From positions 28,972-92,971 of the forward strand of contig JABHDY010000004.1 in assembly GCA_018676855.1 (NCBI GenBank): a DNA stretch of 64,000 nt, read 5' to 3'. Of the stretch, positions 24,394-56,912 are shown one piece after another (within the stretch, counting starts at the first letter, position 1; every line of letters begins with the position of its first letter). The notes beneath the pieces are model-generated. The model saw only the letters and a list, made by a program, of their open reading frames with translations. It was not told the DNA's origin and made no database searches. Origin of the DNA: Candidatus Woesearchaeota archaeon (GTDB taxonomy: Archaea > Nanobdellota > Nanobdellia > Woesearchaeales > GW2011-AR9). The position numbers and the translations under genes are program-made.

Positions 24394-24408
24394 TTCAAAT
24401 TATTATAA

Positions 24409-25311
24409 TTATGACCAAGTATGCTCACGCAATATTTGTGCAATTGCAGATATTTTTTGAAGGACATTATTTTCTTCCTCTTTTAAAACAGAATAAATTC
24501 TATTTAATAAATCCTGTTCGGCCACATCACCATCTTCAAATACCATTCCTAGTTTGCATACACCATCAACATTTACTTCTTTTGTTCCGCATTCAGTAGA
24601 TGTAGGTTGAGGTTCGCCTGCAGGAGGAACAACTTCTATATCTACACATTCTCCGCCAACTGCATTACATTCTTGATCAGAAGGACAACCAGTAGGAGCT
24701 ATACGTTCATTTCCTGGACACCTATTACCAGCAGTACATTCAGAAGCATCAAATGCATTACAAACAGGAGCAACTTCTATATCTACACACTGACCAACAC
24801 TACATTCTTGACCAGAAGGACAACCAGTAGCAGGAATAACAACATTATCTGGACATAGCCAGCCATCTGTACATTCAGTTACAGGTAATGCGGTACATGT
24901 TGGAGTTACAGACTCAACTTGAACCACAGGGAAAGAAGCTTCCTCTTGACCTGCTGCAGTATTAGCTTGAATTCCAGTAATTGCTAATGTAAAAGATGCA
25001 GAAGCGTCAAAGTTTAATGTTCCTGTAAATGTATCTGGAGACAAAGCAAATACTCCAATTGCAGGAGGGGACTGAGTTAAGTCACTAATATCAATAAATG
25101 GACTAAAACTTACTGAACTTAATGTTGCAGAACCAGAACTTACTGTTGCACTAAAACCTGAAATAGATGTCGTTCCAGAACTTATTTCACAAGCAACCGG
25201 ACCCCCACCATCTGGAACAGTTCCACAATTTACTGTGAAGTCGACAGCAAACGCAGAACTAACTAAAAGTAATGCAACCAACAAATAAATTTTATATCTT
25301 TTTATCATCAT
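24409..25311 (-). CDS. Secreted Cys-rich protein, 300 aa, with two tandem Cys modules and the conserved C-terminal helical motif.
   Basis: It has a classical signal peptide (MMIKRYKIYLLVALLLVSSAFA). Two ~45-aa repeats read TxCxxxxxxECTxGxxCPxN...GCPSxQEC...CVDIEV. The C-terminus reads DLLNRIYSVLKEEENNVLQKISAIAQILREHTWS. Confidence 0.7.
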   Translation of the reverse strand: MMIKRYKIYLLVALLLVSSAFAVDFTVNCGTVPDGGGPVACEISSGTTSISGFSATVSSGSATLSSVSFSPFIDISDLTQSPPAIGVFALSPDTFTGTLNFDASASFTLAITGIQANTAAGQEEASFPVVQVESVTPTCTALPVTECTDGWLCPDNVVIPATGCPSGQECSVGQCVDIEVAPVCNAFDASECTAGNRCPGNERIAPTGCPSDQECNAVGGECVDIEVVPPAGEPQPTSTECGTKEVNVDGVCKLGMVFEDGDVAEQDLLNRIYSVLKEEENNVLQKISAIAQILREHTWS

Positions 25312-25323
25312 TTTTCACCTCTA

Positions 25324-26409
25324 TTAAGAGCAACTATTTATTGTAAATCCAGGCACACCAAATGAAACACGAGCAATTAAAATAGCATCATCTAATGAAA
25401 CGGTCCCTGAACAATCAGCGTCCGAATTTGCTGAATCTTGTAGTGAATATCCAGGCACGCCAAATGAAACACGGGCAACTAAGATCGCATCAGCAAGATT
25501 TAGAGTTCCATCACCATCTGCATCACCTAATACAATATTGGATGGTGCAACATTACCACTCCAACTTGTCTGACTTCGTGCAACATCACACATTTTAAGT
25601 GGATCTTGTGGATATACATCTTGATCAGTATAACAAACACCGCCAATTAAACAAGTATTTGCATTAAGTGGATACGTACACGTTTCATCAGTACAAACAT
25701 CAGTTGTACATGACAATCCATCATTACAATCAGTATCTGCTCTACATTCTACACCAGGTTCAGGAACGTCAGGTTCAGGAACAGCAACACTTTCAACAAT
25801 AATTGTTGGACTAACAATACCCGTATCGAGAATCATATCAATAGGAGGTTGTGCAACATTATAAACATCAAATTTTGTAAATGTTAAATCATACTCACCC
25901 GTTACACTTTCCTGAAAAGTAATAGTAGCGATAGTAAATAAACCAGTTTTTTCATTTAGAGGATCAAATGTTGCTGAATCAAAACTAATTATACCATCAG
26001 CGCATGAAATATCTAATAAGTCTGTCCAACCTAAATCAGAAACTACTGAACTACTACACTCGGTTGACAAATCTAAACCATTAAGGTGAAGATCAAAAGA
26101 TACTGCAACAGTTTCAACATCAACGGGCAATTTAGCTTGTACTATAAGATCAAACTCATCATCAACAGTAACAGTATTATCTACCAAAAATATTCCTGCT
26201 GTATTATCAGTAATAGTACCTTCCAATTGAAAACTGATAGCCTTTCCTACAAACGTATCTGAGAAAAATAGTAATGAACCCAGTGCAACAAGTGCTACGA
26301 TAGTAATAATGCCAATAAGTAACGGTTTATTAACCTCTTTTTTATTTGAAACCTGATTTTGAGTTCTTTTTGAAACGTTTTTCTTCACCATTTTTATCCT
26401 CCCTCTCAA
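25324..26409 (-). CDS. Membrane-anchored surface protein, 361 aa, with a cohesin-like N-domain and a C-terminal two-repeat dockerin domain.
   Basis: The N-terminal motif reads NKPLLIGIITIVALVALGSLLFFSDTFVGKAI. The cohesin-like segment reads FLVDNTVTVDDEFDLIVQAKLPVDVETVAVSFDLHLNGLDLS. The C-terminus reads GDADGDGTLNLADAILVARVSFGVPG ... NSDADCSGTVSLDDAILIARVSFGVPG. These are two EF-hand-like DxDxDGxxNxxD loops, each followed by a helix, which is the canonical dockerin repeat architecture. Confidence 0.75.
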   Translation of the reverse strand: MRGRIKMVKKNVSKRTQNQVSNKKEVNKPLLIGIITIVALVALGSLLFFSDTFVGKAISFQLEGTITDNTAGIFLVDNTVTVDDEFDLIVQAKLPVDVETVAVSFDLHLNGLDLSTECSSSVVSDLGWTDLLDISCADGIISFDSATFDPLNEKTGLFTIATITFQESVTGEYDLTFTKFDVYNVAQPPIDMILDTGIVSPTIIVESVAVPEPDVPEPGVECRADTDCNDGLSCTTDVCTDETCTYPLNANTCLIGGVCYTDQDVYPQDPLKMCDVARSQTSWSGNVAPSNIVLGDADGDGTLNLADAILVARVSFGVPGYSLQDSANSDADCSGTVSLDDAILIARVSFGVPGFTINSCS

Positions 26410-28703
26410 TTACGTAGCACGTACGCTATCTCTGACATTTTCTGTAATAAATTATTATCATTATTCCATATAGTTACTATTTCATTTAATAAATTGGTAT
26501 TATCTTCTGATGCCCCCGTATCTACACAAACACCATTAACATATAATTCTCCAGTTACACATTCTTCAGGCCACTCTACTGTAGCTTCAGGAATAGGAGC
26601 AGGTTCTGGTTCGACAATACAAGACGTATCAGCAACACAATCACTATCAGCACAATCAACTAAACTATCACCATCATTGTCAATACTATCTGTACAAATT
26701 TCAATTGGAGACGTACCAACACAAACTCCGGCAGAACAATGATCACCAGTTGTACTTGGATCATTATCTGAACAATACAAAGCATCATTATTAGTCCATG
26801 CAGCAGTATCAGATTCAGGGTTACATTGTTGACATTGGTTAGCTGGATTAAGATTATTTCTTATCTGACAAACGCCATCTATCAAACATCGGTTTGCACT
26901 AATTGGATATGTACATGTTCCCTCTACACAAACATTATCTGTACAGGAGATACTATCATCACAATCTGTATTTGTTGTACATTCAGGAATATCTTCAGCA
27001 GGAGCAGGTTCTTCGGTTAAACATAAAGATGAACAACCGTCATTATCAATAAGATTACCATCGTCACATTCTTCATTACCATTAATAAGAGAATCACCAC
27101 AAGATTCTGCAAGTAAACAATCTCCATATCCTAAACATTCATTTCCACAGTTTTGTATACCATTATAACCATTAACTTCACAGTTTATACTACCATCATC
27201 ACAAAATTCACCTTCTTCAATTATTGAATTACCACAAACTGCAGTTGGTTCTGGTTCTGGAGGCGCAGGCTCCGGTTCTTCCTCAGGTTCAGCAGGAGGA
27301 ACTGGTTCAGGCTCCTCTTCAGGTTGAGGAGCAGAAAATAAAGGTGTACCGAACGCTAACAATTTACCTTCGTCACCGCCTGCAACATATAAAATATCAT
27401 CGTTTGCTAAAAGTGATGGTGATGTACTTGGATTATGATTAATTGTACTTGGAACACTCCAAAGAGTATTTTTCCATGGCGTACCTGGATATGTAGGCGG
27501 TCCACCTTTAAGAGCAACAACTTTATCCGTACGAGAAATGTAAATTGTACCATCTAATGCAACTAATGGAGCTGCGTAAATTGGTGTGCTAGAAGAATAA
27601 TGATAATCACTATCTGTAGGAGTAAATATTATCTGACTATGTTTTCCAGGAAGAAATGCAATAGTTCCAAAATATAATTTTTTATCAGTACCAGCAGAAG
27701 CAAGGTACAGTTTCGCAGATGTCGTAGTGGTATCAACAACAACAGCTTCAGATATAAACGATGCGCCAGGTACCATTACAGGTCCAACATTTTGGTTAGT
27801 CGGTCTTGAAATGAATAACATACCACCAGAACGTGCTTGTTCAAAAAAGTATATTTGTTCATTAACAGTTCCAATAATAACTAAATTGTAATCATTCACT
27901 CCAGCTACTGTAGAAGAATAAACTGTTATAGGTGCCACTACATTTGAATCGAGAGAGATTATATGATGAATTCCTTGAGTTCCCGCTGTAACCAAAGTCA
28001 TGTCATCTATGTTAATAGAATATAATTCTCTACTATTTGGCATTTGTACTACAAAAATGAGATAATCGCCATTACTTGAAGGAGATATTGCAGGCGTAGA
28101 AGATACAAAACCGCTCGTACCATACGCCACATCTGTATATGTAACAGGATATCCAGGAACTGGATACACATTAATTTTATGGACGCCCCTTGTTGATCCA
28201 ACAATAAATGTATCACCATACATAACAATAGATGTCGTAGGATTAATTGCCCCATGACTTAACGCTATATCAAGCGCGTCACAATTTCCTACTGCTGAAC
28301 GATCAGATAATCCAACAATCCTAACAATTCCATTTTCTAAAGGTACAAACAAATTATCTTCCTCTGCATGATGTGCAGGACTACCAATAACTTTGTCAGC
28401 ACGAATAAAACAACTGTTTATACTATCACCCGTGCTTGGGTTTATAGTATGAAGGTATGAACCCGTTTCATCATTTGTTATAAGATATGTAGCATCGCCA
28501 ACAACGAACGGTGCAATGTCTGCAGATCCAGAAGAATAAGTTTGTTCCCAAAGAAGAGTTGTATCTCCAGCGATAGGACCAACATCAATAGCCTTTCCAA
28601 AAACGCCTTCTTTAATTGATGGAAATAATACAAATAATGCAACTAACAAAACAACTGCTACTACCCCTAATATCACTACAATTTTACGACTATTAGCATT
28701 CAT
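26406..28703 (-). CDS. Giant surface protein, 765 aa. It has an N-terminal TM anchor, a beta-propeller-like repeat region, a PEPEP linker, Cys-rich Myxococcus-type and CxDxxDNDGD modules, and the conserved C-terminal helical motif.
   Basis: The anchor reads MNANSRKIVVILGVVAVVLLVALFVLFPSIKEGVFGKAI. The linker reads PEEEPEPVPPAEPEEEPEPAPPEPEP. Cys modules include CGDSLINGNEECDDGNLIDNDGCSSLC and CTDSIDNDGDSLVDCADSDC. The C-terminus reads NLLNEIVTIWNNDNNLLQKMSEIAYVLRN. Confidence 0.8.
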   Translation of the reverse strand: MNANSRKIVVILGVVAVVLLVALFVLFPSIKEGVFGKAIDVGPIAGDTTLLWEQTYSSGSADIAPFVVGDATYLITNDETGSYLHTINPSTGDSINSCFIRADKVIGSPAHHAEEDNLFVPLENGIVRIVGLSDRSAVGNCDALDIALSHGAINPTTSIVMYGDTFIVGSTRGVHKINVYPVPGYPVTYTDVAYGTSGFVSSTPAISPSSNGDYLIFVVQMPNSRELYSINIDDMTLVTAGTQGIHHIISLDSNVVAPITVYSSTVAGVNDYNLVIIGTVNEQIYFFEQARSGGMLFISRPTNQNVGPVMVPGASFISEAVVVDTTTTSAKLYLASAGTDKKLYFGTIAFLPGKHSQIIFTPTDSDYHYSSSTPIYAAPLVALDGTIYISRTDKVVALKGGPPTYPGTPWKNTLWSVPSTINHNPSTSPSLLANDDILYVAGGDEGKLLAFGTPLFSAPQPEEEPEPVPPAEPEEEPEPAPPEPEPTAVCGNSIIEEGEFCDDGSINCEVNGYNGIQNCGNECLGYGDCLLAESCGDSLINGNEECDDGNLIDNDGCSSLCLTEEPAPAEDIPECTTNTDCDDSISCTDNVCVEGTCTYPISANRCLIDGVCQIRNNLNPANQCQQCNPESDTAAWTNNDALYCSDNDPSTTGDHCSAGVCVGTSPIEICTDSIDNDGDSLVDCADSDCVADTSCIVEPEPAPIPEATVEWPEECVTGELYVNGVCVDTGASEDNTNLLNEIVTIWNNDNNLLQKMSEIAYVLRN

Positions 28704-28803
28704 TAATCTAGTTCACCTTTTTTTAGTATAAAGAATACCTTTTCGTTTATATACCTATCGATTTTCTACGTGTATAAAAAAGTTAAAAAAAAGCGGTTAA
28801 CTC

Positions 28804-29727
28804 TTAAGGAGAATACTGATTTCCTGAACCATTATTACCTTTAGAACGTGACCTAAAAAAGAACACAAGGATAAGTATTGCAACAAGTAATAAAATAATG
28901 CCGGCAACATAATACCATGTGGAAACACCTTCTGAAACGTCTTTATCGTCTTCAACTACGTCCCTCGTAGTAGAAGGAATTACTGATGGAGCAGTTCTTC
29001 CCGAAACTGTACCGCACACTTTCGTTTCTGCAGGTTGTGGAAATTGTGTAACTGAACTAATGGTTCCAGCAGACAACTGTGCATCACAATCGTCTGATCT
29101 TTGACATGAACGTGTTTGTATTTCATTTGAACATGAACTCCACGACGTACAGTCCCATACATACACACATGCAGGAAGGGTTTGCGGTTGATCAGGCAGT
29201 GTACCCGCCACGCACGTTTTCTGTTCAGTTTTTGTTAACTCATCAGTATCACATTCGTTAACATCGGTACATGTACGTGTTTGTGTTGCAGCAACACAAG
29301 ATAACCATTCGTCACAGTCCCATCGTTGATCACATGTAATGACTGATGATGAAGTACTAACGTCATGCCGCGTTACACCCCACGATTCATATTCAAGAGT
29401 ATCAATAAGTGTATCGTCAACATAAAAAGCAATGGTATTACCATCTTCACCATGTACACGAAGGTAATTAGTAACATCATTTCCGTACTTTCCCGTGCAC
29501 GGATTTGTATCGCACGTTACAATAGAAATTGATGAGGAATATTCAACACCGTTAACAGACGCAACCACATTTTCTGGAACGTCAGAATCTAAGTCCCACG
29601 TTACACGACCATAAAACTGATGATGTTCGATTGACGGTGGTTCTGCCGCAATTACCATTACGGGAACAAGAAGTGTACATAATAATATCCACAATAATAT
29701 GTTCAGTTTCATTCTACAAATACCCAA
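28804..29727 (-). CDS. Type I membrane protein, 307 aa, with thrombospondin type-1-like (WxC...WSxC...QTRxC) repeats and a C-terminal TM helix.
   Basis: The signal reads MKLNILLWILLCTLLVPVMVIAA. The repeats read CDQRWDCDEWLSCVAATQTRTCTDVNEC and CVYVWDCTSWSSCSNEIQTRSCQRSDDC. The TM helix reads YYVAGIILLLVAILILVFFF, followed by a basic/Gly tail. Confidence 0.7.
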   Translation of the reverse strand: MGICRMKLNILLWILLCTLLVPVMVIAAEPPSIEHHQFYGRVTWDLDSDVPENVVASVNGVEYSSSISIVTCDTNPCTGKYGNDVTNYLRVHGEDGNTIAFYVDDTLIDTLEYESWGVTRHDVSTSSSVITCDQRWDCDEWLSCVAATQTRTCTDVNECDTDELTKTEQKTCVAGTLPDQPQTLPACVYVWDCTSWSSCSNEIQTRSCQRSDDCDAQLSAGTISSVTQFPQPAETKVCGTVSGRTAPSVIPSTTRDVVEDDKDVSEGVSTWYYVAGIILLLVAILILVFFFRSRSKGNNGSGNQYSP

Positions 29728-31052
29728 TATGCTTTACCTGGTTCTAACATAGTTATACCAGATTCTTTAACATCATTATCTTTAATAACATACATTTCGG
29801 TAATTTCTAATTCTTCACCGACGTTCAAATCTTCAATTGACATTCGTTCAAATCCCGGAATGCCGATAAGGTTCCAACCCTCTTGTACAGATACAAGTTC
29901 GTTAAACGGATTATGTGAAGCAGTAAAATAGTCGTTACATTCTTCAGTAAAAGAAAATGTATCTACACCGTCTTTTAACCTAATGTAATATCCTTTATCT
30001 TGTTTCAAGTTAGTAATCTCTGACGTACCACTCCATAAGTCAGGAATTGTACGTGCTAAAACCTGTTCAGTTTCATCCCATGAATATATTCCCTTAACTT
30101 TATCTTCAAAGTCGGTACTTCCTATCACACTTCTTCCAACATCGCAGGAAGGTGAAAATGCTTGCATGCGTAAACCGCCAGTAAAGTTAAATGTTATTTC
30201 GTACTGATCGTACGTTGCCTGTTCAACTTTTGTTAATGTCATAAGTGGAAAATTGTCTTCTTGTAACGTTGCAACGATTGATCCAACAGAAAAGAGAAAG
30301 TCACGTTCCGTTTCTTCACCATTAACATCGGCAATAACTGTTATTCGATACACGCCAACATCGTCAGGTGTAAATGTAAGGCCTTTTAATACATGGGCAG
30401 TAGAGGGTTCGTCTTCAGTGATATCATAAAATTCTGAATCAGAAAGTTGTGTACCGTCATTCTTATACGCAGTTACAGTTGCAAGTGGAGTACTTTCAAC
30501 TTTTACGTACCGTTCAATAACGTCATCAGGGGAAACAGCTGACAGTTCAGATTCAACAGGTGTGCCATCAATGTCTAACAATGAAATTATTGCTGCGGAA
30601 GGTTCATCATATACAATGTTTCGTACAGTTAATTCGCTCCCGTCGTACGACAGTTCAATGTCAGGAACATTATCAAAATCTAAATAGATGTTTCCTGAAG
30701 TACGTAGGCCATTACCAAGAAGACCTTCAAACAATCTTGTTCCGCTTAAACTGACACTATAATTGATCATACTATAATCGGTATCTTCAAACGGAAATAC
30801 CTCAATATGATATTCACGTTGAACTCCCTGTGAAGGAACTAAAGAAATGTCCCATGAAGTAACGAACTGGACAGAAATTGATGCTGATTCTGTCACGTTA
30901 AGATCTATCGGACCAATAGGTGGCGTTGTATATGCTTGACCTGTCGGCCGTAAGAATACTGCTAGTAATACGACAACAACAAGTAATGCTGCACCAATAA
31001 GTACTTTAGGTACAATGTTTTTCATTTTGCTGTTTGATTTTTTTGTTGTCAT
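29709..31052 (-). CDS. Secreted or membrane-anchored protein, 447 aa, function unknown.
   Basis: The N-terminus has a basic stretch, the TM helix VLIGAALLVVVVLLAVFL and a possible cleavage site TGQA|Y. The body is beta-rich. It overlaps the flanking genes by 19 nt and 4 nt. Confidence 0.7.
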   Translation of the reverse strand: MTTKKSNSKMKNIVPKVLIGAALLVVVVLLAVFLRPTGQAYTTPPIGPIDLNVTESASISVQFVTSWDISLVPSQGVQREYHIEVFPFEDTDYSMINYSVSLSGTRLFEGLLGNGLRTSGNIYLDFDNVPDIELSYDGSELTVRNIVYDEPSAAIISLLDIDGTPVESELSAVSPDDVIERYVKVESTPLATVTAYKNDGTQLSDSEFYDITEDEPSTAHVLKGLTFTPDDVGVYRITVIADVNGEETERDFLFSVGSIVATLQEDNFPLMTLTKVEQATYDQYEITFNFTGGLRMQAFSPSCDVGRSVIGSTDFEDKVKGIYSWDETEQVLARTIPDLWSGTSEITNLKQDKGYYIRLKDGVDTFSFTEECNDYFTASHNPFNELVSVQEGWNLIGIPGFERMSIEDLNVGEELEITEMYVIKDNDVKESGITMLEPGKAYWVFVE

Positions 31053-34000
31053 TTTTGTATATGGATAGTTGGAATGTCAGCATCTAACACGTGAATCTTT
31101 ACCACATTACCGTTAGAGAGTAAAACGTGCCTTTCTTCATCAACGGGAAGGTTGCTAACATAAATTAGTTTACCCTCTTCAGTTATTGTAACTTTAACAA
31201 AGTCCGATATGCTAGGACTTTCATCGACGGATAAGCTATACACATGGCCGTCAATGTTTGTCATGAACGATGTTGGTTGTTGTTCTTCAGTAACGTTAAA
31301 TCCTATAAGTGTTAATAATGAACGTTGTAAAGGTTCAATGTCAAGATCTATTCTAAAATCTTCACTCTCGCCAACAAACTTTTTTTGAAACGCAAGCACA
31401 CCATTATCAAAAACTATTGTTCCTGCTTCTCTTCCTTCCGCTTCTGATGTTGTCGTGTTCATTTGTATGGTACTAAATGAACTCGCGCGTGGTAATTCTA
31501 CTAGCTGGAATGTATCTAATGTTTGTGAACCCTCTAATTCGAACCACGTATCTTCCCAGAAAATTGCGGGATTTCGATTATTTTGAAGATTATCTGTAAT
31601 TGCTAACCAATCAAACGTTTCTGTATGATCGTCTGTAAGATTCATAGTATGTTTAAACGTGACAACTTTTTGTCCTTCAGTATTTTTCCCATGGTATTGA
31701 ACAAGGACTCCAGAGATATAACTTGAATATAATACGTCTCTATCAAGAGTGAGGTCAATTTCATTTGAACTACATAAACCAACAAAATCAACTAACGTAG
31801 CCGCTGCAGCACTGTCACAAATTTCATACGTATTGCTTCCAATCTGAATATTATTTCGCTGACCGTTAACACCTGCAAGTAATGTTGCTGAAAAATTTTC
31901 TCGTGGAGAGAATGTTCCCGTTGAAATTGCTGCAAGTTCAAGCTCACTCGTAACGTCTGATAAAGAGATGCCCGTAAATGTAATCTCACGAACATCACCG
32001 GTCTGAACTTTAGCTTCAATCCTTCGTTCACCAAGATCAAAGACAAGATCAAGACCGCTCATTGTTGGAGCAATAGGGTTAGAACCGTCAACATTTGTAA
32101 TACGCATTTTACTTAATTCAAACCCTTCAGCCTCTGTTCCTGTCCAAGGATCAGCATATGTTAAAAGATAATATTGATCGTCTAATCCGAATGCTAACCG
32201 TTTTCCTTTTACTAGTGGAAGGATAAAATTAGTATCAGTAAATTCGTGTGTGTATGGACCATTTCGTAAATTACTATAAAAGAATACATGAGCATATTTA
32301 TTGAATGTATTTAGTGCTCCAGATATACCACCATTCGTAAAATCTGAGTAATAGAACAAGACTTTACCATTATGTTCAAAGTTAGGCTTCGCGTCACTAA
32401 AATTTAATTCAACTAGAACACCATTATAATTTATTTGCATTATATCTTTAAGGATGTTAATGTCACTCGGATCAATTTTAATTTTCCTATAGGCTTCACT
32501 ATCACGGAAATTTAATATATCAACTTGACTGTACGTGCTAATATATGTTTCAAACTCGTTCTCTAAATCGACCTGTTTCGTCGTTGTTGTTTTTGCACTA
32601 AAATCGTAATTAAGTTCCGGTTCAAGATCAAGTTTAATATTAATTTGTTTTCCTAAAGGCAAATTAAAGACAACTTCTGATTGGTCTCCCTCGGCCACAT
32701 ATTCAGGAAAACCGGGTTCAGTAATGTCTCTCAATTTTAATGTCGTAAGGTCAAGATAATTTGATAAACTATTCATCCTTATCACATAATCATGTCCCTC
32801 ATAACTAAGGGCCATACGTTTTCCCGCAACCATGTTTGTTGCAAAAATTGTTGCAAATTCATTTTGAATATCTGTCACGTCTCTCCTATATAACACACTA
32901 CCTTCTTTTGTTTGGTCTGGTGCAGGTTGTTCATACCAGAAAAGAACATTTTCTAGTGTGCTTGCTTTTTTATTTTGTATATTAAGTATTTGTGATTCCC
33001 TGTCACATACAGTCAGAGCTGAAAGGACTGGAGGATCGTTACTACATACACTAACAAATCCAAGATTGTTCGTTGCAACATCAAGAATGATGTCTTTTGA
33101 AAAAGATTCTTCATATGTTTGTGCAAGATCAACTTGATCCTCACCGACAGTTGTTCCTATCCTAATCTCTTCTTGCGTTTTTGTTAATCTAAAAATAACA
33201 CCCCCATCTCCAACAACTATTGGACGGGCAACGAAAAAAATCTCCTCTGTTTCTTGTTCATCAATGAAAAAATTACCTCCAAAAAAATTACCAACTATCG
33301 GATTAGGAGTTACATCCGTAGTAGCAGTTGAACCGCCGAAACTTCTCCCATCAATAGTAAAAATGACATCAGATTCATCACCAAATACGCCCATTGTATG
33401 CTCAACACCATTAGAGACAAATGTTTGAGAATTGTCAGATAGAAGAACCCCCGTCCAAGCCATGTTAGTTTGATCAAAATCGATAACTGTTGTTACTGAG
33501 AACAGAATTGATTTGTCTAAGTAGGGAGATGCCAGAAGAACTGATAAATATGCATCTGTTATTGTATCACCATCAAGATCTAATGGAAATTGTTCCTGTG
33601 AAAACGCATACTTGTCTTCCGGATCAACTGTTAATGTAATGTCAAACGCTGGACCTGCTGATGACACACTAAGTGTAACAGCTCCCGCTTCAGTAGGATT
33701 GGCCATTTTTATTTGAAATATTGTATCTCCGTACCTAAAGAAAGACTTTTGAGTTGTAATTGATAGAAATCCAAAGTATCCTTGTTTCTCAATTATATCA
33801 ACAGGATCTGCTGCGGTACTTCCACCATTCGGAAGAACCCCTATCCCTTCGAGAACGAAACCATTGAAAATTCCTTGAGGATTCTCAAATTCTTCTTTTG
33901 GAACATCAAATAACCATTTATTATTTTTACAGAACATTGATGATACTGAATCATCACATACGTGCCATTGAGTTGCATCGCAAAAATAAGAATTATCGTC

Positions 34001-34681
34001 TTCATAAATACCAAAAAAGTTAGAATCACAAACATGCCATTGATTTTCTGAACATAAAAATTTGTTACCTACATCCGATGGAAGATTTTGATAGATTCCC
34101 GGAATTTGTGTGTCGTCACATTCAACAGTAATTGTTGCATGTACATCTGGATCAATGTTATTAGAGACACAAAGTTCTTTTTTAGTAGATACATACTTAG
34201 AAAACAAAGAGCCAACACTATAACAGTATGTTCCAGAAGTTAAAGAAGAAGCTTGATATTCTTCAAATGTCATCTGTGGCTTTGGACCAATGCAAAAATC
34301 GCCTCGTTGTGGACAACAATATCCAGGCGCAGTTCCCCCAGATGCTAAATTAACTCCATCACCATCAATGGCATTTTGAAGAGTATATTTATGTGTTTTT
34401 TCAATACCTCTTTGAGAACAAGAATCTTCACCAAAAACAGCTTCAACAACAGCCAATGGTTCATTAGTACTTCCCCAATAATCCCCTACTGGTGCAGGTT
34501 GTCCCGCTTGCCATATAGCCTGACCAACAACCCCATCTTTAACAAATGGATACAGAACAGCAACTGCAACTACTAAAACAATTAAACCAACCCATAATGC
34601 AGTAAGTTTCTTTTTATGTTCAGAATGATGCTCACTAGGAGAAGAACGTTTCAGTTTAGCACTATCTTTTTTAACCATCAA
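31049..34681 (-). CDS. Giant secreted or membrane-anchored protein, 1210 aa, function unknown.
   Basis: The N-terminal TM helix reads LTALWVGLIVLVVAVAVLYPFVKDGVVGQAI, sharing the G-x-A-[IV] junction. An N-terminal Cys-rich segment reads CxxNxxHVCD.. repeated. The rest is a long beta-rich body with no recognised motif. Confidence 0.8.
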   Translation of the reverse strand: MMVKKDSAKLKRSSPSEHHSEHKKKLTALWVGLIVLVVAVAVLYPFVKDGVVGQAIWQAGQPAPVGDYWGSTNEPLAVVEAVFGEDSCSQRGIEKTHKYTLQNAIDGDGVNLASGGTAPGYCCPQRGDFCIGPKPQMTFEEYQASSLTSGTYCYSVGSLFSKYVSTKKELCVSNNIDPDVHATITVECDDTQIPGIYQNLPSDVGNKFLCSENQWHVCDSNFFGIYEDDNSYFCDATQWHVCDDSVSSMFCKNNKWLFDVPKEEFENPQGIFNGFVLEGIGVLPNGGSTAADPVDIIEKQGYFGFLSITTQKSFFRYGDTIFQIKMANPTEAGAVTLSVSSAGPAFDITLTVDPEDKYAFSQEQFPLDLDGDTITDAYLSVLLASPYLDKSILFSVTTVIDFDQTNMAWTGVLLSDNSQTFVSNGVEHTMGVFGDESDVIFTIDGRSFGGSTATTDVTPNPIVGNFFGGNFFIDEQETEEIFFVARPIVVGDGGVIFRLTKTQEEIRIGTTVGEDQVDLAQTYEESFSKDIILDVATNNLGFVSVCSNDPPVLSALTVCDRESQILNIQNKKASTLENVLFWYEQPAPDQTKEGSVLYRRDVTDIQNEFATIFATNMVAGKRMALSYEGHDYVIRMNSLSNYLDLTTLKLRDITEPGFPEYVAEGDQSEVVFNLPLGKQINIKLDLEPELNYDFSAKTTTTKQVDLENEFETYISTYSQVDILNFRDSEAYRKIKIDPSDINILKDIMQINYNGVLVELNFSDAKPNFEHNGKVLFYYSDFTNGGISGALNTFNKYAHVFFYSNLRNGPYTHEFTDTNFILPLVKGKRLAFGLDDQYYLLTYADPWTGTEAEGFELSKMRITNVDGSNPIAPTMSGLDLVFDLGERRIEAKVQTGDVREITFTGISLSDVTSELELAAISTGTFSPRENFSATLLAGVNGQRNNIQIGSNTYEICDSAAAATLVDFVGLCSSNEIDLTLDRDVLYSSYISGVLVQYHGKNTEGQKVVTFKHTMNLTDDHTETFDWLAITDNLQNNRNPAIFWEDTWFELEGSQTLDTFQLVELPRASSFSTIQMNTTTSEAEGREAGTIVFDNGVLAFQKKFVGESEDFRIDLDIEPLQRSLLTLIGFNVTEEQQPTSFMTNIDGHVYSLSVDESPSISDFVKVTITEEGKLIYVSNLPVDEERHVLLSNGNVVKIHVLDADIPTIHIQK

Positions 34682-35883: not shown

Positions 35884-35950
35884 TTTTTGTACACTCTTAC
35901 TAAACAGAAATAGTATTTCACTTATATATTTGTCGATATTAAAAAAAGTG

Positions 35951-36033
35951 CGCCACGGACCGGATTTGAACCGGCGATTCCAGAAGGAACGGGATTAGCA
36001 ATCCCGCGCAATACCGAGCTATGCGACCGTGGC
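35951..36033 (-). tRNA. tRNA-Ser (GCU), type II with a long variable arm; CCA not encoded.
   Basis: The minus strand reads GCCACGG-TC-GCA-TAGCTCGGTAT-TGC-G-CGGGA-TTGCTAA-TCCCG-TTCCTTCTGGAATC-GCCGG-TTCAAAT-CCGGT-CCGTGGC-G. The acceptor stem is 7 bp and the D-stem 3 bp. The anticodon loop TTGCTAA gives GCT. The variable arm is 14 nt and the T-loop is TTCAAAT. Confidence 0.75.
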
Positions 36034-41129: not shown

Positions 41130-41396
41130 TCAAACCCATGTATAGGCTTCTAATGATTCAAACTCACCTTTTCTGTCAAGGATAACTGTACCTTTATCAT
41201 CACCAATCATTACTTGTACATGCCATCCGTCCTGTTTAAGGATGATTTGGTGTACAACGACAGGTTCTTCAATACCAATCTGATTGATAAGGTACGTCGT
41301 TGCAATACCGCCAGCTTCCGCCTGCGTAATATCTTTTACACAGCCAGTAAGAAGAATTAATGAGAAAATGACCAATGCAAACATTATTTTTTTCAT
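41130..41396 (-). CDS. Small secreted lipoprotein-like protein, 88 aa.
   Basis: The signal with lipobox LTGC reads MKKIMFALVIFSLILLTGCVKD. A small beta-rich domain follows (PepSY-like pattern). Confidence 0.45.
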   Translation of the reverse strand: MKKIMFALVIFSLILLTGCVKDITQAEAGGIATTYLINQIGIEEPVVVHQIILKQDGWHVQVMIGDDKGTVILDRKGEFESLEAYTWV

Positions 41397-41500: not shown

Positions 41501-43795
41501 ATGGTGCAAGAAAAAATATTGAAATGTTTTGACTATGAAACATATCATGAAGGAGAGAATAAAGTACTGAAAGTATCGTTAGAAAAATGTACATTTCCAC
41601 CATCGATTGAGTATAGTGGCGTATGTATGAGTAAAGTTATTGATGCGCTAATCGCAAATTCTGGCATAACAATTATCATTTTAACACAATTACGAGAATA
41701 TGAATATGATTTTGCACAAACTTCTATCCTGAACGAAATTGCTGCTGTCTACAAAAAATTAAATAGGGATGAACGACAAGCACATTCTCGTATTGTAACG
41801 GATCCACAACATGAACGGTACATACGTGGAAGTTATGCACAATTTCAACGACTTATTTCTAAACAGTTAAAGGAAGATCCACTTTCAGCGTTCGTTGAAC
41901 TGAAACGTCTTGAACGTCGAGAAAAAGCAAAATTGGACGCACTTATTGATGAACGACATTCACAAAGTCAACAAATATTTTTACAGATTATGCAAGAAGC
42001 TATCGCAATTATTGAACATACAACGCTTATCAGAACACTTATGCCACACACGCACGAGTATGATCTTGGAACGAGGCAAATATATCAAAATGTACTCAAT
42101 CCAACAACAAAACCCGATTTTATGTATACAAAAGTAATTACAGAATTTCCTGAAGGAAATTTTGAAGAAAGTTATAATTTTATGTCTGGAGAGGATACTA
42201 TTCAAGTTAACATATTTAGTTTCAATGATGAGATTAAAGTTATGTATCATATAACACCGCCAGAATTTCGTTTCACGGAAGAAGAATATGGACTTCTTGA
42301 CAATGCAAAACGTATCTTGGCAGAACATAAACCTACACGGGAAGAGTTTGTTGACCCAGAACGTATGCGTGAAGTGTTCCTTAATATTGGAAGGGATTTG
42401 TTAAAAGATTTGGTACAACATAATAATAGTATGGTAACAGATTCTAAAGTTGACCAACTTGCACATGCACTCCTTCGATACACGGTTGGGTTTGGATTAA
42501 TAGAACTGTTGTTAGCAGACCCTAAAGTTCAAGACGTTAACATTAACTCTCCAAATGGTGAGCTCCCAATATTTATTGTTCATCAAGATTATGGTGATTG
42601 TTATACGAACGTATATCCAACACATGCAGAAGTTGAAAGTTGGGCAACCAAATTACGACTTATTTCAGGACGGCCGTTAGATGAAGCTAACCCCATACTA
42701 GATACAGAACTTAAAGTTGTTGGGTTCAGTTCAAGGGTATCAACAATAACTGCTCCTTTAAGTCCAACGGGCTTAGCATTTTCGTTTAGAAGGCACAGAG
42801 ATTTTCCATGGACATTTCCATTATATTCACAATCAAAAATACGGTACATGGATTCAATGGCTGCAGGATTGTTAAGTTTTGTCATCGATAATAATGCAGC
42901 AATATTAGTTGCAGGGACACGGTCAAGCGGTAAAACGTCACTACTTGGATCGTTCTTAACAGAAATTATGCGTAAAACTCGTATAATTACAATTGAAGAT
43001 ACGTTTGAACTTCCACAAGAATCTATGCGTAAATTAGGGTATAACATTGAATCGTTAAAAGTAGCGTCTGCATTATCATCGCCGGGATCAGAAGTTGATC
43101 CGTCAATTGGTATACGGTCAACGTTACGTATGGGCGACTCCGCAATATTTGTTGGTGAGGTACGAAGTAAAGAAGCAATTGCATTATTTGAAGCAATGCG
43201 TGTTGGTGCTGCAGCGAACGTTGTTGCGGGAACCATTCATGCAGATTCTCCCTACGGCGTGTATGATAGAGTTGTTAATGATATTGGCGTACCAAAAACG
43301 TCATTTAAAGCTATTGATATTATTGTAACTACAAATCCGGTCATTTCTGGTCTTAAAAAGTATAAACGGATTCTTCGTATAACAGAAGTTCGTAAAGAAT
43401 GGGACGAAGATCCATTAAAAGAGGGAGCCTTTGTTGATTTAATGGTATATAATCCTAAAACTGATAAACTTGAAATTACTGATGAACTTAAGAACGGCAA
43501 TTCAGTTATCCTTAAACGTATGGCGGGAAAAGTGAAGGAATTTGCTGGTGATTGGAGTGCTGTCTGGGACAATATTGAATTACGGGCAAAATGTAAACAA
43601 GCAATTGTTGACATTGCAGAAGAAGAAAAGAATGATTCAATTCTTGAAGCCGATTTTGTAACTAGGGCAAACGATGTATTTCATATAATTTCTGACAGAG
43701 TGAAAGATGCAGTAGGAACGCTTGATTCTCATAGAATATTTTTTGAATATAATGATTGGATACGTAAAGAAGTAAAGAAAAGGAAGATTGAGTGA
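41501..43795 (+). CDS. Type IV pilus/archaellum-family secretion ATPase (FlaI/GspE/VirB11 superfamily) with a ~450-aa N-terminal extension.
   Basis: The Walker A motif reads AGTRSSGKTSLL. The Asp box / Walker B motif reads IITIEDTFEL. A His box-like segment reads AANVVAGTIHADSPYGV. Total length is 764 aa. Confidence 0.85.
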   Translation: MVQEKILKCFDYETYHEGENKVLKVSLEKCTFPPSIEYSGVCMSKVIDALIANSGITIIILTQLREYEYDFAQTSILNEIAAVYKKLNRDERQAHSRIVTDPQHERYIRGSYAQFQRLISKQLKEDPLSAFVELKRLERREKAKLDALIDERHSQSQQIFLQIMQEAIAIIEHTTLIRTLMPHTHEYDLGTRQIYQNVLNPTTKPDFMYTKVITEFPEGNFEESYNFMSGEDTIQVNIFSFNDEIKVMYHITPPEFRFTEEEYGLLDNAKRILAEHKPTREEFVDPERMREVFLNIGRDLLKDLVQHNNSMVTDSKVDQLAHALLRYTVGFGLIELLLADPKVQDVNINSPNGELPIFIVHQDYGDCYTNVYPTHAEVESWATKLRLISGRPLDEANPILDTELKVVGFSSRVSTITAPLSPTGLAFSFRRHRDFPWTFPLYSQSKIRYMDSMAAGLLSFVIDNNAAILVAGTRSSGKTSLLGSFLTEIMRKTRIITIEDTFELPQESMRKLGYNIESLKVASALSSPGSEVDPSIGIRSTLRMGDSAIFVGEVRSKEAIALFEAMRVGAAANVVAGTIHADSPYGVYDRVVNDIGVPKTSFKAIDIIVTTNPVISGLKKYKRILRITEVRKEWDEDPLKEGAFVDLMVYNPKTDKLEITDELKNGNSVILKRMAGKVKEFAGDWSAVWDNIELRAKCKQAIVDIAEEEKNDSILEADFVTRANDVFHIISDRVKDAVGTLDSHRIFFEYNDWIRKEVKKRKIE

Positions 43796-43854
43796 GAGTA
43801 ACTTCGTCGCAATGTTTTTATACTCCATTCTATTAATCGTCACTGAGGCTATAG

Positions 43855-46071
43855 ATGGAACAGGACGAACTGCAACAACTACGTGAAAAGTATAAAGCGA
43901 AGATTAAAGAAGAGTTTGGTGAAGCGCCCGTGAAGGGTGTTGAAGTTTCTTCTCGTGAGTATACAGAATTTAAGCAAGAACTGTATCCAACACATTATTC
44001 GTTCTATGAAAAGATGTGCAATTTTTCTGAGAAATTATTAAAATTAAAAGTTAATCCAAAGAAAGCTGAAAAGTATCAAAAGTCTATCAAGACATGTCAT
44101 CTTAACGTAACGCCGTCAGGTGTAACGTCATTAGCAATTCTTACGGGAATACTCTTGATAGTTTTTGGAACATTGTTTCTTGCTGGTCTCCCAGTTCTTT
44201 TCGGTTCAGAACCATTACTTATCCTTATTTTGTTTGGTTTAATTGCAGGAATGGTTTCTATTCCTTTATTACAACGAGTTCCACATTTCATGGCAAACAC
44301 ATGGCGTATAAAAGCGTCAAGTCAAATGGTACAAAGCGTTTTTTATATGGTTACGTTTATGCGGCACACATCAAATTTGGAACGAGCAATAAAATTTGCT
44401 GCTGACCATCTTGAACCGCCAATTTCTCTTGATTTTAGAAAAATATTATGGGACGTGGAAACACAGAAGTATAGTACAATACGTGATTCAGCAAACGAAT
44501 ATCTTGAATCGTGGAAAGAATGGGACAAGGAATTTGTTGAAGCGTTTCATTTAATTGAATCGTCATTGTTTGAATCTGCTGAAGAACGACGATTAGCACT
44601 TCTTGACAAATCGCTTGACGTTATTTTAACGGGAACGTACGAAAACATGTTACATTATGCACATAATCTTAAATCGCCAATGACAATGTTGCACATGTTA
44701 GGTATTATCCTTCCAATATTAGGATTAGTTATTTTACCTTTAGTTGTTAGTTTTATGAGTTCAGGTTCAAATCCAATTATTATTTCGTTATACATTGCAC
44801 TACTGTATAATATAAGTATTCCAACAAGTGTCTATTTTCTTGGAAAAACTATTTTATCGAAACGTCCTGCTGGGTACGGTTCGACAGATATAAGTGAACA
44901 GAAAGGATTCAAGAAATTGCGGAACGTTAATATTCCTCTTGGAAAAAAATTTTCTATCGGTATCAATCCTGCATTTTTTGCAATAACTTTATTTTGTGTC
45001 GCTGCACTTATTGGATTTAGTCCTATAATTCTTCACAATTTAGGAACGGCAGATTTTGAAATTATTCCTGGAAAAGATATTAAAATGTTAGATTATGTGT
45101 GTCGACCATGTGAAGAGGGCATGCCAGCAAATTCGTGTGGAATAGAATGTGATGAAGATAAGAAGGTTGGACCCTACGGCATGGGCGCATCATTATTATC
45201 TCTCCTTATCATTGCTGGGCTTGGAGTTTCAATAGGACTATACTTTTCACTCCGATCAAAGAATGTTATTAAGATACGACAAAAAACTAAAGAGTTAGAG
45301 GACGAATTTTCATCTGCATTGTTCCAGTTAGGAAATAGGTTAGGTGACGGCATACCCGCAGAGATTGCGTTCGCTAAAGTTGCAGTAACCATGCAGGGAA
45401 CAACGTCTGGCGATTTCTTTACAGTTACAGAAAGAAACATGACAAGTCTTGGTATGGGCCTTGAACAAGCAATATTTGATAGTAAAGTTGGTGCACTTGT
45501 TAACTTTCCGTCAAAAGTTATTGAATCTTCAATGAAAGTCCTTATTGAAAGTGCAAAGAAAGGACCGTTAATTGCTGCACGAGCATTATTGTCAATGTCA
45601 CGGTACATTAAAGAGATTCATCGTGTTGAAGAACGTTTGAAAGATTTAATGTCAGACGTTATTTCTTCTATGAAATCACAGATTAAATTTTTAACGCCTG
45701 CCATTGCAGGTATAGTTATTGGTATAACGTCAATGATCTCAGGTATTTTAACAAAACTTACTGCACGGTTAGGTAGCATTACAAGTGGTGGTGATGGAAT
45801 TAGCGAAACGGGAGAGTTGTTAAGCATATTTGGTATTGGCATTCCCACATTTTATTTTCAGATAGTTGTAGGAATTTATATTGTACAGATAATTTATATC
45901 CTTACAGTGTTAAGTAACGGAATAGAAAATGGTTCTGATAAGCTTGGTGAGAGGTTCATGTTAGGAAAGAACTTAATTTCCAGTACGTTATTATATTGCT
46001 TTTTAGCGGGAGTTGTCATGATACTCTTTAACTTGTTTTCAAGTTCAATACTTACTGGCGCTTTAACATAG
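43855..46071 (+). CDS. FlaJ/TadC-like polytopic platform protein of a type IV pilus-like system (738 aa, duplicated T2SSF-like domains).
   Basis: It sits immediately downstream of the FlaI-like ATPase on the same strand. It has multiple TM helices and two cytoplasmic helical domains, typical of the FlaJ/GspF platform family. Confidence 0.7.
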   Translation: MEQDELQQLREKYKAKIKEEFGEAPVKGVEVSSREYTEFKQELYPTHYSFYEKMCNFSEKLLKLKVNPKKAEKYQKSIKTCHLNVTPSGVTSLAILTGILLIVFGTLFLAGLPVLFGSEPLLILILFGLIAGMVSIPLLQRVPHFMANTWRIKASSQMVQSVFYMVTFMRHTSNLERAIKFAADHLEPPISLDFRKILWDVETQKYSTIRDSANEYLESWKEWDKEFVEAFHLIESSLFESAEERRLALLDKSLDVILTGTYENMLHYAHNLKSPMTMLHMLGIILPILGLVILPLVVSFMSSGSNPIIISLYIALLYNISIPTSVYFLGKTILSKRPAGYGSTDISEQKGFKKLRNVNIPLGKKFSIGINPAFFAITLFCVAALIGFSPIILHNLGTADFEIIPGKDIKMLDYVCRPCEEGMPANSCGIECDEDKKVGPYGMGASLLSLLIIAGLGVSIGLYFSLRSKNVIKIRQKTKELEDEFSSALFQLGNRLGDGIPAEIAFAKVAVTMQGTTSGDFFTVTERNMTSLGMGLEQAIFDSKVGALVNFPSKVIESSMKVLIESAKKGPLIAARALLSMSRYIKEIHRVEERLKDLMSDVISSMKSQIKFLTPAIAGIVIGITSMISGILTKLTARLGSITSGGDGISETGELLSIFGIGIPTFYFQIVVGIYIVQIIYILTVLSNGIENGSDKLGERFMLGKNLISSTLLYCFLAGVVMILFNLFSSSILTGALT

Positions 46072-46123
46072 GGTAAATACCCTAAAAACATTTATAAACA
46101 CCTATTTAATTGAATGAGTAAAT

Positions 46124-46268
46124 GGGGCTGTAGCTCAATCTGGGACATAAGGAATACATTATTTCTTGTGCAGGAAAGAGCACTAGACTGAAGATACGAA
46201 AAATCCAAGATTTTTGGAATGTCGTAACCGACATCTAGGTGTTCGGGGTTCAAATCCCCGCAGCCCCA
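46124..46268 (+). tRNA. tRNA-Phe (GAA) interrupted by two introns. One is a ~32-nt non-canonical intron in the D-loop and one is a ~39-nt intron at the canonical 37/38 position. CCA is not encoded.
   Basis: The exons read GGGGCUG-UA-GCUC-AAUCUGGGA-[46146..46177]-GAGC-A-CUAGA-CUGAAGA-[~46194..46232]-UCUAG-GUGUU-CGGGG-UUCAAAU-CCCCG-CAGCCCC-A. The spliced product is 74 nt. Its D-arm and anticodon loop (CUGAAGA) match canonical tRNA-Phe almost exactly. Confidence 0.7.
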
Positions 46269-46321
46269 CATTTTTCTTTATAGAAGTTAAATTTATATAC
46301 TCAATTGATTTATCTTTTTAT

Positions 46322-47014
46322 ATGGCGCGGCCAAAAAAGAGTGTACAAAAGAATAGTAATAGAGTCCAAGATAAAATCTTCTGGGCAGCGTTAGGTATTA
46401 TATTCATTATTTCTACTGTTGTAATTGTCACTAATGTTGATACAAGTATTGATTTAACAGGAAATGCTGTTGTTCAAACAATAAGTTATTTTAAAGCCGG
46501 TGGTGAAATGTTCCTTGAAACAAAAACTGGCGGAATTCAAGATATAACGGTAACGTTTAACGAAGAAGTTAAAAATTCGCTTATTAAAACTGAAATGGTT
46601 GATGACGTTTCATGGAACTTTGATGGTAAGGTATATTCGAAAGTAAAAATATCATCAGTTATTGAAGATAAGATTAATGAAGGAATAAAAGTAACATTAA
46701 AAATAAGGGAGAATGATCTTCTTGAATCAGGAATTTCTCAGGGAGACGTACGTCTTTTTGTTAATGGTGAAAAGTTAGACACTGTTTTTGACAAGTCAAA
46801 AGACGGATATTTATATTATAAAGCTGTCAGTCCAAGTTTGGGAGAGTTTATTATTGGTAAGGAAATGGTGAAAGAAGTTGAAGTTGTTAATGACGTTGTT
46901 CCTGAACCGGTTGTTGAAGTGGTAGATGAGCGGGTTGTTGAAGAAGAAGTTGTAGAAGAGGAAGCAGGTTTCTTTGCAAGTATTGGTAATTTCTTTAAAG
47001 GATTGTTTAATTAA
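46322..47014 (+). CDS. Signal-anchored beta-rich protein with an acidic VVEEE C-terminal tail; candidate pilin-like substrate (weak).
   Basis: The start at ATG 46322 (MARPKKSVQKNSNRVQDK) is followed by a 20-aa hydrophobic helix IFWAALGIIFIISTVVIVT. The track ORF start at 46214 overlaps the tRNA-Phe and is rejected. The C-terminus is rich in Glu/Val repeats and ends GFFASIGNFFKGLFN. Confidence 0.5.
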   Translation: MARPKKSVQKNSNRVQDKIFWAALGIIFIISTVVIVTNVDTSIDLTGNAVVQTISYFKAGGEMFLETKTGGIQDITVTFNEEVKNSLIKTEMVDDVSWNFDGKVYSKVKISSVIEDKINEGIKVTLKIRENDLLESGISQGDVRLFVNGEKLDTVFDKSKDGYLYYKAVSPSLGEFIIGKEMVKEVEVVNDVVPEPVVEVVDERVVEEEVVEEEAGFFASIGNFFKGLFN

Positions 47015-56682: not shown

Positions 56683-56832
56683 TCTACCAACCTCTTTTTT
56701 GTATAATTATGATTAATTATGAAGAAAGTAAGTTAGGTTAATATATAAAAGTTTGTTTTTATAGAACATAGTTCTATATGTTATTTTATCCGTAATGTTT
56801 AAAAAGAAATTCCTGTTTGCAGTAACATTAAT

Positions 56833-56906
56833 GGCTCCATGGCTTAGCCTGGTAGAGCGCACGACTGATAATCGTGAGGTCCCGAGTTCAAATCTCGGTG
56901 GAGCCA
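56833..56906 (+). tRNA. tRNA-Ile (GAU), 74 nt; CCA not encoded.
   Basis: The sequence reads GGCTCCA-TG-GCTT-AGCCTGGTA-GAGC-G-CACGA-CTGATAA-TCGTG-AGGTC-CCGAG-TTCAAAT-CTCGG-TGGAGCC-A. All stems pair and the anticodon is GAT. Confidence 0.85.
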
Positions 56907-56912
56907 TTTTTC

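Follow-up and report, generated by a model that had tools for sequence, protein, structure and literature searches.

A predicted tRNA-Phe(GAA) gene with two small introns, one of them in the D-loop, in a Woesearchaeota-type archaeon

The DNA analysed here is a stretch of 64,000 nucleotides (the window) from an uncultured Woesearchaeota-type archaeon of the DPANN superphylum. Positions 46124-46268 on the forward strand very probably form a functional, expressed tRNA-Phe(GAA) gene, predicted from its sequence to consist of three exons separated by two small, protein-spliced introns of the bulge-helix-bulge (BHB) type. The gene is preceded by a putative promoter and followed by a T-rich tract, and its parts are arranged as follows:

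46084..46098 (+): promoter; an A-rich stretch (aaaaaca) resembling a B recognition element, then the TATA box TTTATAAA at 46091-46098
46124-46144 (+): exon 1, tRNA positions 1-20; acceptor 5' strand GGGGCUG, U8 and A9, D-stem 5' strand GCUC and the D-loop portion AAUCUGGG
46145-46176 (+): intron 1, 32 nt, at position 20/21 in the D-loop
46177-46193 (+): exon 2, positions 21-37; A21, D-stem 3' strand GAGC, A26, anticodon-stem 5' strand CUAGA, then C32, U33, G34, A35, A36 and G37
46194-46232 (+): intron 2, 39 nt, at the canonical position 37/38
46233-46268 (+): exon 3, positions 38-73; A38, anticodon-stem 3' strand UCUAG, variable loop GUGUU, T-arm CGGGG-UUCAAAU-CCCCG, acceptor 3' strand CAGCCCC and A73
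46271..46279 (+): oligo-T tract TTTTTCTTT, a likely archaeal transcription terminator

Deletion of 46145-46176 (32 nt) and 46194-46232 (39 nt) from the 145-nt precursor leaves a 74-nt tRNA that ARAGORN calls as tRNA-Phe(GAA), with acceptor, D, anticodon and T stems of 7, 4, 5 and 5 bp, all fully paired. The D-loop of this product is AAUCUGGGA, the anticodon loop CUGAAGA and the T-loop UUCAAAU. The conserved tertiary and identity nucleotides U8, A14, G18, G19, G20, G34, A35, A36 and A73 are present together with the Levitt pair 15-48; the set of Phe identity nucleotides derives from studies of model organisms. The discriminator A73 is the last nucleotide of exon 3 and the CCA end is not encoded. 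The initial annotation had proposed a tRNA-Phe(GAA) gene with two introns, one of them in the D-loop, and had described the D-arm (GCUC/GAGC) and the anticodon loop as canonical; ARAGORN accepts the 74-nt product once both inserts are removed, and these elements appear in its cloverleaf. Intron 2 lies where it had been placed, at about 46194..46232 with a length of 39 nt, and its register is 37/38. For intron 1 the 32-nt length stands, whereas the boundaries 46146..46177 move by one base to 46145-46176 under the BHB rule; since both junctions are flanked by an A, the two versions give an identical product. The exons follow one another in the normal order on a single stretch of 145 nt, which rules out a split or permuted tRNA gene.

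Splice junctions were analysed with a scanner that looks for a 4-bp central helix (H) and a 3-nt bulge after H on each strand, and places the cut after the second bulge nucleotide. At intron 1 this rule puts the cuts after G20 (46144) and after 46176, i.e. between G20 and A21. The central helix joins 46139-46142 (UCUG, in exon 1) to 46171-46174 (CAGG) with all four positions paired, one as G-U, and the two 3-nt bulges are 46143-46145 (GG/A, the slash marking the cut) and 46175-46177 (AA/A). The inner helix is 11 bp long (46146-46156 with 46160-46170) and closed by the loop CAU. The BHB conformer has a predicted energy of -14.8 kcal/mol and the local minimum free energy is -15.8 kcal/mol, a gap within 1 kcal/mol. 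As modelled, the motif is of the relaxed HBh' type and qualifies as that of an archaeal BHB intron. The initial annotation had held that a lack of BHB-like structure at both junctions would refute the two-intron reading; inspection of the junctions finds such structure, with H paired at four of four positions at intron 1.

Intron 2 is bounded by the anticodon stem, which serves as a 5-bp outer helix (46183-46187 with 46234-46238), and contains a 5-bp inner helix in which 46195-46199 (UACGA) pairs with 46222-46226 (UCGUA). The register is exact, with 7 nt per strand between the outer and inner helices. The bulges are 46192-46194 (AG/A) and 46231-46233 (AC/A), with cuts after G37 and after 46232. 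An AU repeated at both junctions would also permit registers 38/39 and 39/40, but these yield no BHB, and 37/38 was retained. Within the clade of close relatives to which the window belongs the 37/38 register is unchanged, and the inner helix has undergone a compensatory change from UACGA/UCGUA to UACAA/UUGUA, a single change in a small sample. The partner strand of H at this site, A(C/U)(C/U)G, is degenerate throughout the window clade; across relatives H has from two to four of its four pairs, with those outside the window clade reaching three or four. The 37/38 introns of seven relatives (L011, L016, L022, L026, L029, L048 and L057) have a common motif, UCUG(A/C)UGAG followed by a GC hairpin and (A/G)AUGA, the sequence of which resembles a box C/D or kink-turn (L7Ae-binding) element. 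Intron 2 of the window gene lacks this motif.

The unspliced gene escapes standard tRNA detection. ARAGORN makes no tRNA call at 46124-46268, RF00005 has no match there in Rfam, whether judged by the gathering score or at E<=5, and no fragment of the gene turns up with permissive filters; the genomic sequence is missed because the two inserts interrupt the gene, the spliced form being detected. ARAGORN in intron mode reports a tRNA-Gln(ttg) with a 63-nt intron on the precursor, which was rejected as spurious since its D-arm is broken. A degenerate pattern for a tRNA-Phe with a D-loop insert has one match in the window and none in 100 shuffles. The unconstrained minimum free energy fold of the 145-nt precursor (-55.2 kcal/mol) is a cloverleaf with two protruding intron hairpins, with a z-score of -5.29 and an energy that none of 200 shuffles reaches. 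The locus is base-identical in ENA ERZ23491686 and, on contig JABIZR010000009.1, in NCBI GCA_018669175.1, which are independent assemblies; a third differs by two single-nucleotide polymorphisms, neither within the gene, and the locus is not an assembly artefact.

Relatives were collected with a degenerate pattern describing a tRNA-Phe in which 25-55 nt are inserted between G19 and G22. A scan of about 185,000 species genomes yielded 28 loci, from Woesearchaeota, Nanoarchaeota and a few metagenome-assembled genomes (MAGs) labelled Methanosarcinales, and metagenomes added 28 more; these 56 loci give 34 distinct resolved genes. Isolate names of the relatives start with 'SI', taken here to stand for Saanich Inlet. 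The exact window gene was matched in neither the genome nor the metagenome pattern scan and was recovered via its downstream protein. Introns were assigned by splice-aware alignment and BHB assignment, leaving out locus L057, where the automatic five-intron solution is spurious, and L054, which is truncated. The first automatic splice sites for the D-loop introns were discarded, as they produced implausible 11-nt D-loops in some relatives; the 20/21 and 19/20 classes restore the canonical 9 nt.

In-silico splicing of each of the 34 resolved genes yields a 74-nt tRNA-Phe accepted by ARAGORN, and every gene carries an intron at either 20/21 (24 genes) or 19/20 (10 genes). Introns also occur at 37/38 in 20 genes and at 59/60 in 10, and more rarely at 4/5 (four genes) and in the variable arm at 46/47 (one gene). 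Nine genes have a single intron, 16 have two, eight have three and one has four. Two different three-intron tRNA-Phe genes, distinguished by their acceptor sequences GGGGCGG and GGGGCAG, are present in a single MAG, ARS1419 (L022 and L029; NZBG01000037.1 and NZBG01000003.1); these are either two gene copies or the product of a bin that mixes two strains.

Covariation supports the BHB structure of the D-loop intron and every cross-exon stem, as judged from these sequence comparisons. The 24 distinct genes of the 20/21 class were placed in a gap-free anchored alignment and scored for BHB structure: 80.8% of cells are paired, compared with 30-44% when partners are slid, and in all 10 pairs of the inner helix both partners show changes. 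Covariation scores 0.344 versus 0.138 for shuffled alignments, a value that none of 500 shuffles attains. A relatedness-aware control paired the 5' arm of each intron with its own 3' arm or with the 3' arms of other genes; the own-partner total for the inner helix was reached in none of 10,000 permutations, in both the 20/21 and 19/20 classes. Among 27 distinct mature sequences, the acceptor stem (formed by exons 1 and 3) and the anticodon stem (exons 2 and 3) are kept paired by compensatory changes, and the tertiary pair 15-48 covaries, being A-U in five and G-C in 19 (24 of the 27). U8, A14, G18, G19, G20 and A73 are invariant in all 27.

Four relatives (L030, L004, L010 and L015) have exons identical to those of the window gene at 74 of 74 positions and differ from it in intron content. 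The sole intron of L030 is a different D-loop intron of 43 nt, while L004, L010 and L015 combine a 19/20 intron with a 37/38 intron of 20-22 nt. The exons are therefore under purifying selection while the introns turn over. The position of the D-loop intron alternates among genes with identical or nearly identical exons, being 19/20 in L004, L010, L015 and L031, as compared with 20/21 in the window gene, L006 and L030. In the 19/20 introns the central-helix partner is GGAA or GGGA and the bulges are GG/A and AA/G (cuts at the slash), and their sequences are unrelated to those of the 20/21 introns. From the sequences, this alternation looks like either one-nucleotide sliding of the intron or its replacement.

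The most heavily interrupted gene is L027 (WJKB01000135.1, Woesearchaeota Bin_568; tRNA-Phe around 356-418 (+) plus flanks), which on sequence criteria appears to have four BHB introns, at 4/5, 20/21, 37/38 and 59/60, whose central helices have 4/4, 4/4, 3/4 and 4/4 pairs, respectively. Its in-silico spliced product is a 74-nt tRNA-Phe according to ARAGORN. The genes with a 4/5 intron (L027, L028, L037 and L005) have their TATA box at about -43, not -33, and a correspondingly longer 5' leader (CAGGUUGAGC or CAGUCUGAG) that pairs over 10-12 bp with exon nucleotides from about 9 to 19, in the D-arm. L005 has a compensatory change in this helix relative to the other 4/5-intron genes. The helix suggests that the leader acts as the outer BHB helix, so that splicing would precede RNase P cleavage.

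Several observations weigh against the interpretation of 46124-46268 as a functional gene with two BHB introns. At intron 1 no outer helix is stacked directly on H, A14 and A15 separating H from the D-stem. At intron 2 the central helix, 46188-46191 (CUGA) with 46227-46230 (ACCG), pairs at only two of four positions (C32-G and G34-C), and nearest-neighbour energies disfavour its formation, at -7.7 kcal/mol with these two pairs versus -12.1 kcal/mol when the 7x7 loop stays open. In the AT-rich DNA of the window (35% G+C), both strands together contain 282 BHB-like motifs in which H is 4/4 and the inner helix has 7 bp or more; such geometry is thus common by chance, the motif was discarded as stand-alone evidence, and the case rests on exact restoration of the tRNA and on the comparative data. 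Finally, neither the window nor the relatives' loci (473 kb) contain a ligase gene or a homologue of the splicing endonuclease EndA, for which a query validated against PDB 1a79 was used. The silence of the standard detectors and the poor central helix of the anticodon insert would also fit a pseudogene, in which an old tRNA-Phe gene was inactivated by two random insertions and yields no functional tRNA. This is extremely unlikely, however, given that the inserts sit precisely where BHB cleavage restores the tRNA, that the helices of the D-loop insert, the cross-exon stems and the 15-48 pair all covary, that four other species-level genomes have the same 74 exon nucleotides with differing introns, that the promoter and the terminator are conserved, and that the orthologues (34 distinct genes) all preserve the arrangement.

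The weak central helix at 37/38 could alternatively indicate that EndA removes the D-loop insert only, the 37/38 insert leaving inefficiently, by another route or with a cofactor, so that maturation would be slow or regulated. The two-of-four pairing and its energetic cost are consistent with this, as are the degenerate partner strand found throughout the window clade and the better helices (three or four pairs) at the same site in other relatives. Against it, the register is canonical, with 7 nt per strand between two 5-bp helices, and the inner helix covaries; the mature exons are strongly selected, so the insert must be removed accurately; and relaxed motifs are reported to be cleaved by broad-specificity archaeal EndAs (PMC3239211, PMC5829648). 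We regard this as very unlikely. On a still different view of their origin, the inserts would be self-splicing introns of group I or II, or pieces of mobile elements. Group I introns in archaea are reported in a paper that discusses Woesearchaeota (PMC6125680), and tRNA genes are frequent targets of mobile elements, but inserts of 32 and 39 nt are far below the ribozyme core of at least about 200 nt, the region has no Rfam family match even at E<=5, neither insert contains an open reading frame (ORF) or repeats, and both junctions fit the BHB register. The probability of such an origin is next to nil.

If the gene is expressed and spliced at two BHB introns as proposed, transcription would begin a few nucleotides upstream of 46124, directed by the TATA box at 46091-46098, and stop at the oligo-T tract after 46268. 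The precursor would fold as the cloverleaf computed in silico, with its intron hairpins protruding, and this would presumably be the actual substrate. By analogy with established archaeal tRNA splicing, EndA would cleave within the 3-nt bulges, after G20, 46176, G37 and 46232, and an RtcB-type ligase would join the exons; RNase P, RNase Z and the CCA-adding enzyme would then complete the 74-nt tRNA. Since the BHB of intron 1 is by far the more stable, this intron is probably the first to be removed. Both motifs depart from the strict hBHBh' form, one through the A14/A15 offset and the other through two H mismatches, and a broad-specificity EndA is thus expected. The initial annotation had likewise associated such introns with particular archaeal lineages and with an enzyme of this kind, and published work describes non-canonical and multiple introns as lineage-restricted and dependent on a broad-specificity endonuclease (PMC4090602, PMC5829648), a class reported to cleave relaxed motifs (PMC3239211, PMC5829648). 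The EndA of the window organism would be expected to be of the broad-specificity kind known from DPANN lineages.

Many components of this arrangement have precedents. Position 20/21 is a listed non-canonical intron site (PMC4090602), tRNAs with multiple introns are well described (PMC4090602, PMC4033280), and a 2014 review gives three as the maximum number of introns per archaeal tRNA (PMC4033280). Close parallels are the multiple-intron and non-canonical-intron tRNA genes known from Crenarchaeota (Thermoproteales) and Nanoarchaeota (Sugahara et al. 2007/2008; PMC4090602, PMC4033280). Like the window gene, they have small BHB-type introns at non-canonical sites, 20/21 and 59/60 among them, and frequently a canonical 37/38 intron as well; they share with it relaxed HBh' or hBH motifs and a failure to be found by standard tRNA finders, and they depend on a broad-specificity EndA, as would be expected of the window gene. 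The window gene differs from the crenarchaeal genes in that its host is a Woesearchaeota-type DPANN archaeon, that one D-loop site is occupied in the orthologous tRNA-Phe across a whole clade, and that a relative (L027) has four introns as opposed to the review's maximum of three. Kaneta et al. (2018), whose data cover one Woesearchaeota and one Pacearchaeota genome, reported that alpha4-type EndAs with an L3 insertion occur in DPANN lineages, the Woesearchaeota genome among them, that these L3-loop enzymes are associated with increased disruption of tRNA genes and with non-canonical and multiple introns, and that incomplete predicted DPANN tRNA sets are a sign of undetected disrupted tRNAs (PMC5829648). 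That set comes from the same superphylum as the window, but neither the window gene nor the tRNA-Phe D-loop intron family is described there.

The nuclear tRNA-Phe of C. merolae (2013, PMC3728597) is the same tRNA with the same two-intron layout, in the D-arm and at 37/38, and with BHB-type motifs. Its splicing was verified by RT-PCR (reverse transcription PCR) and the more stable BHB is removed first (PMC3728597), an order that by analogy would place intron 1 of the window gene first. It differs in being eukaryotic and of independent origin, with its first intron in the D-stem, not at 20/21, and another endonuclease complex. The epsilon2 EndA of ARMAN-2 (Ca. Micrarchaeum; Fujishima et al. 2011, PMC3239211) is a further DPANN enzyme that cleaves relaxed motifs at non-canonical positions, although it belongs to another DPANN lineage and has another architecture, and there is no sign here of an epsilon2 enzyme in the window organism.

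Non-canonical and multiple tRNA introns, introns at position 20/21 and disruption of DPANN tRNA genes are thus already published, and the window gene adds another case. The literature searched contains no description of a clade-wide tRNA-Phe D-loop intron or of a 19/20 versus 20/21 alternation with identical exons, and nothing relevant to a four-intron archaeal tRNA, the latter being no proof of novelty. It is possible, and we suggest it only tentatively, that the window gene belongs to an undescribed, clade-wide intron family characterized by an ancestral D-loop intron, one-nucleotide sliding, lineage-specific accumulation of introns, and 4/5 introns that depend on the leader. The window gene is a clean and comparatively well-supported example in Woesearchaeota of a tRNA gene that combines a D-loop (20/21) intron with a canonical one, and it implies that the splicing endonuclease of this lineage tolerates relaxed BHB motifs. 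The comparative set, with its identical exons and different introns, one to four introns per gene, and 19/20 and 20/21 positions, forms a compact natural experiment on intron gain, loss and sliding. In practical terms, an essential tRNA gene that is not seen by ARAGORN or Rfam makes genomes of the lineage appear to lack tRNA-Phe, which distorts estimates of completeness and inferences from codon usage.

The flanking signals are shared by the relatives. The TATA box TTTATAAA begins 33 nt upstream of the mature 5' end of the tRNA, and the motif aaaaacaTTTATAAA is found at -33/-34 in the window clade (L004, L006, L010, L015, L032 and L047); T-rich trailers lie downstream of nearly all homologues. 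The ORF downstream of the tRNA is listed at 46214-47014 (+), and the initial annotation had dismissed its TTG start at 46214 as an artefact. This judgement was right: the position is inside intron 2, and the real start is ATG 46322, as indicated by homologous N-termini in syntenic relatives and by public gene calls that begin there, giving a true gene at 46322-47014. This ATG lies 31 nt after a TATA box of its own (ATTTATATA, 46291-46299), and the gene looks like one with a leaderless mRNA. It encodes a membrane protein of 230 aa that weakly matches PGF-pre-PGF, and the gene is syntenic in L006, L004, L010 and L031.

Upstream of the tRNA gene, positions 41501-46071 (+) encode two proteins, a secretion/pilus-type ATPase of 764 aa (T2SSE) and, after it, one of 738 aa that has no Pfam or NCBIfam match. 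The 738-aa protein is 89.7% identical to its counterpart in 'Candidatus Woesearchaeota archaeon CG10_big_fil_rev_8_21_14_0_10_36_11' (L006), and homologues with 47-70% amino acid identity to it adjoin tRNA-Phe in most of the other loci. These identities assign the window to a Woesearchaeota-type DPANN archaeon. The synteny of this gene with tRNA-Phe indicates that the loci are orthologous, and the two constitute a conserved gene-tRNA neighbourhood. Several MAGs titled 'Methanosarcinales' (L005, L012, L018 and L031, and also L009 and L023) bear a DPANN-type locus; in the first four the neighbouring protein is 58-70% identical to the 738-aa protein of the window, and the tRNA-Phe sequence of L009 is the same as in the Woesearchaeota-titled MAGs L019 and L025. 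On these sequence comparisons the 'Methanosarcinales' labels look doubtful.

Elsewhere, the window encodes archaeal-type prolyl- and isoleucyl-tRNA synthetases (ProRS and IleRS), FtsZ and many large orphan surface proteins, and its proteins recur in many environmental assemblies. Very large ORFs, of 997, 858, 765 and 1210 aa, succeed one another in the region 18827-34681 (-) and either lack Pfam domains or have weak repeat-type ones; orphan surface proteins of such size are frequent in small-genome archaea. Two further tRNA genes, tRNA-Ser(GCT) at 35950-36033 (-) and tRNA-Ile(GAT) at 56832-56907 (+), are intron-less, which leaves the tRNA-Phe gene as the only disrupted one among the window's three. 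An Rfam match to Plastid-ycf2 antisense to tRNA-Ile scores 35.9 bits against a gathering score of 65.7 and is read as an artefact. Two weak matches to box C/D snoRNA families, both below threshold (E about 1-3), lie at 41152-41211 (-) and 9355-9426 (+), and may represent archaeal C/D sRNAs or chance similarities.

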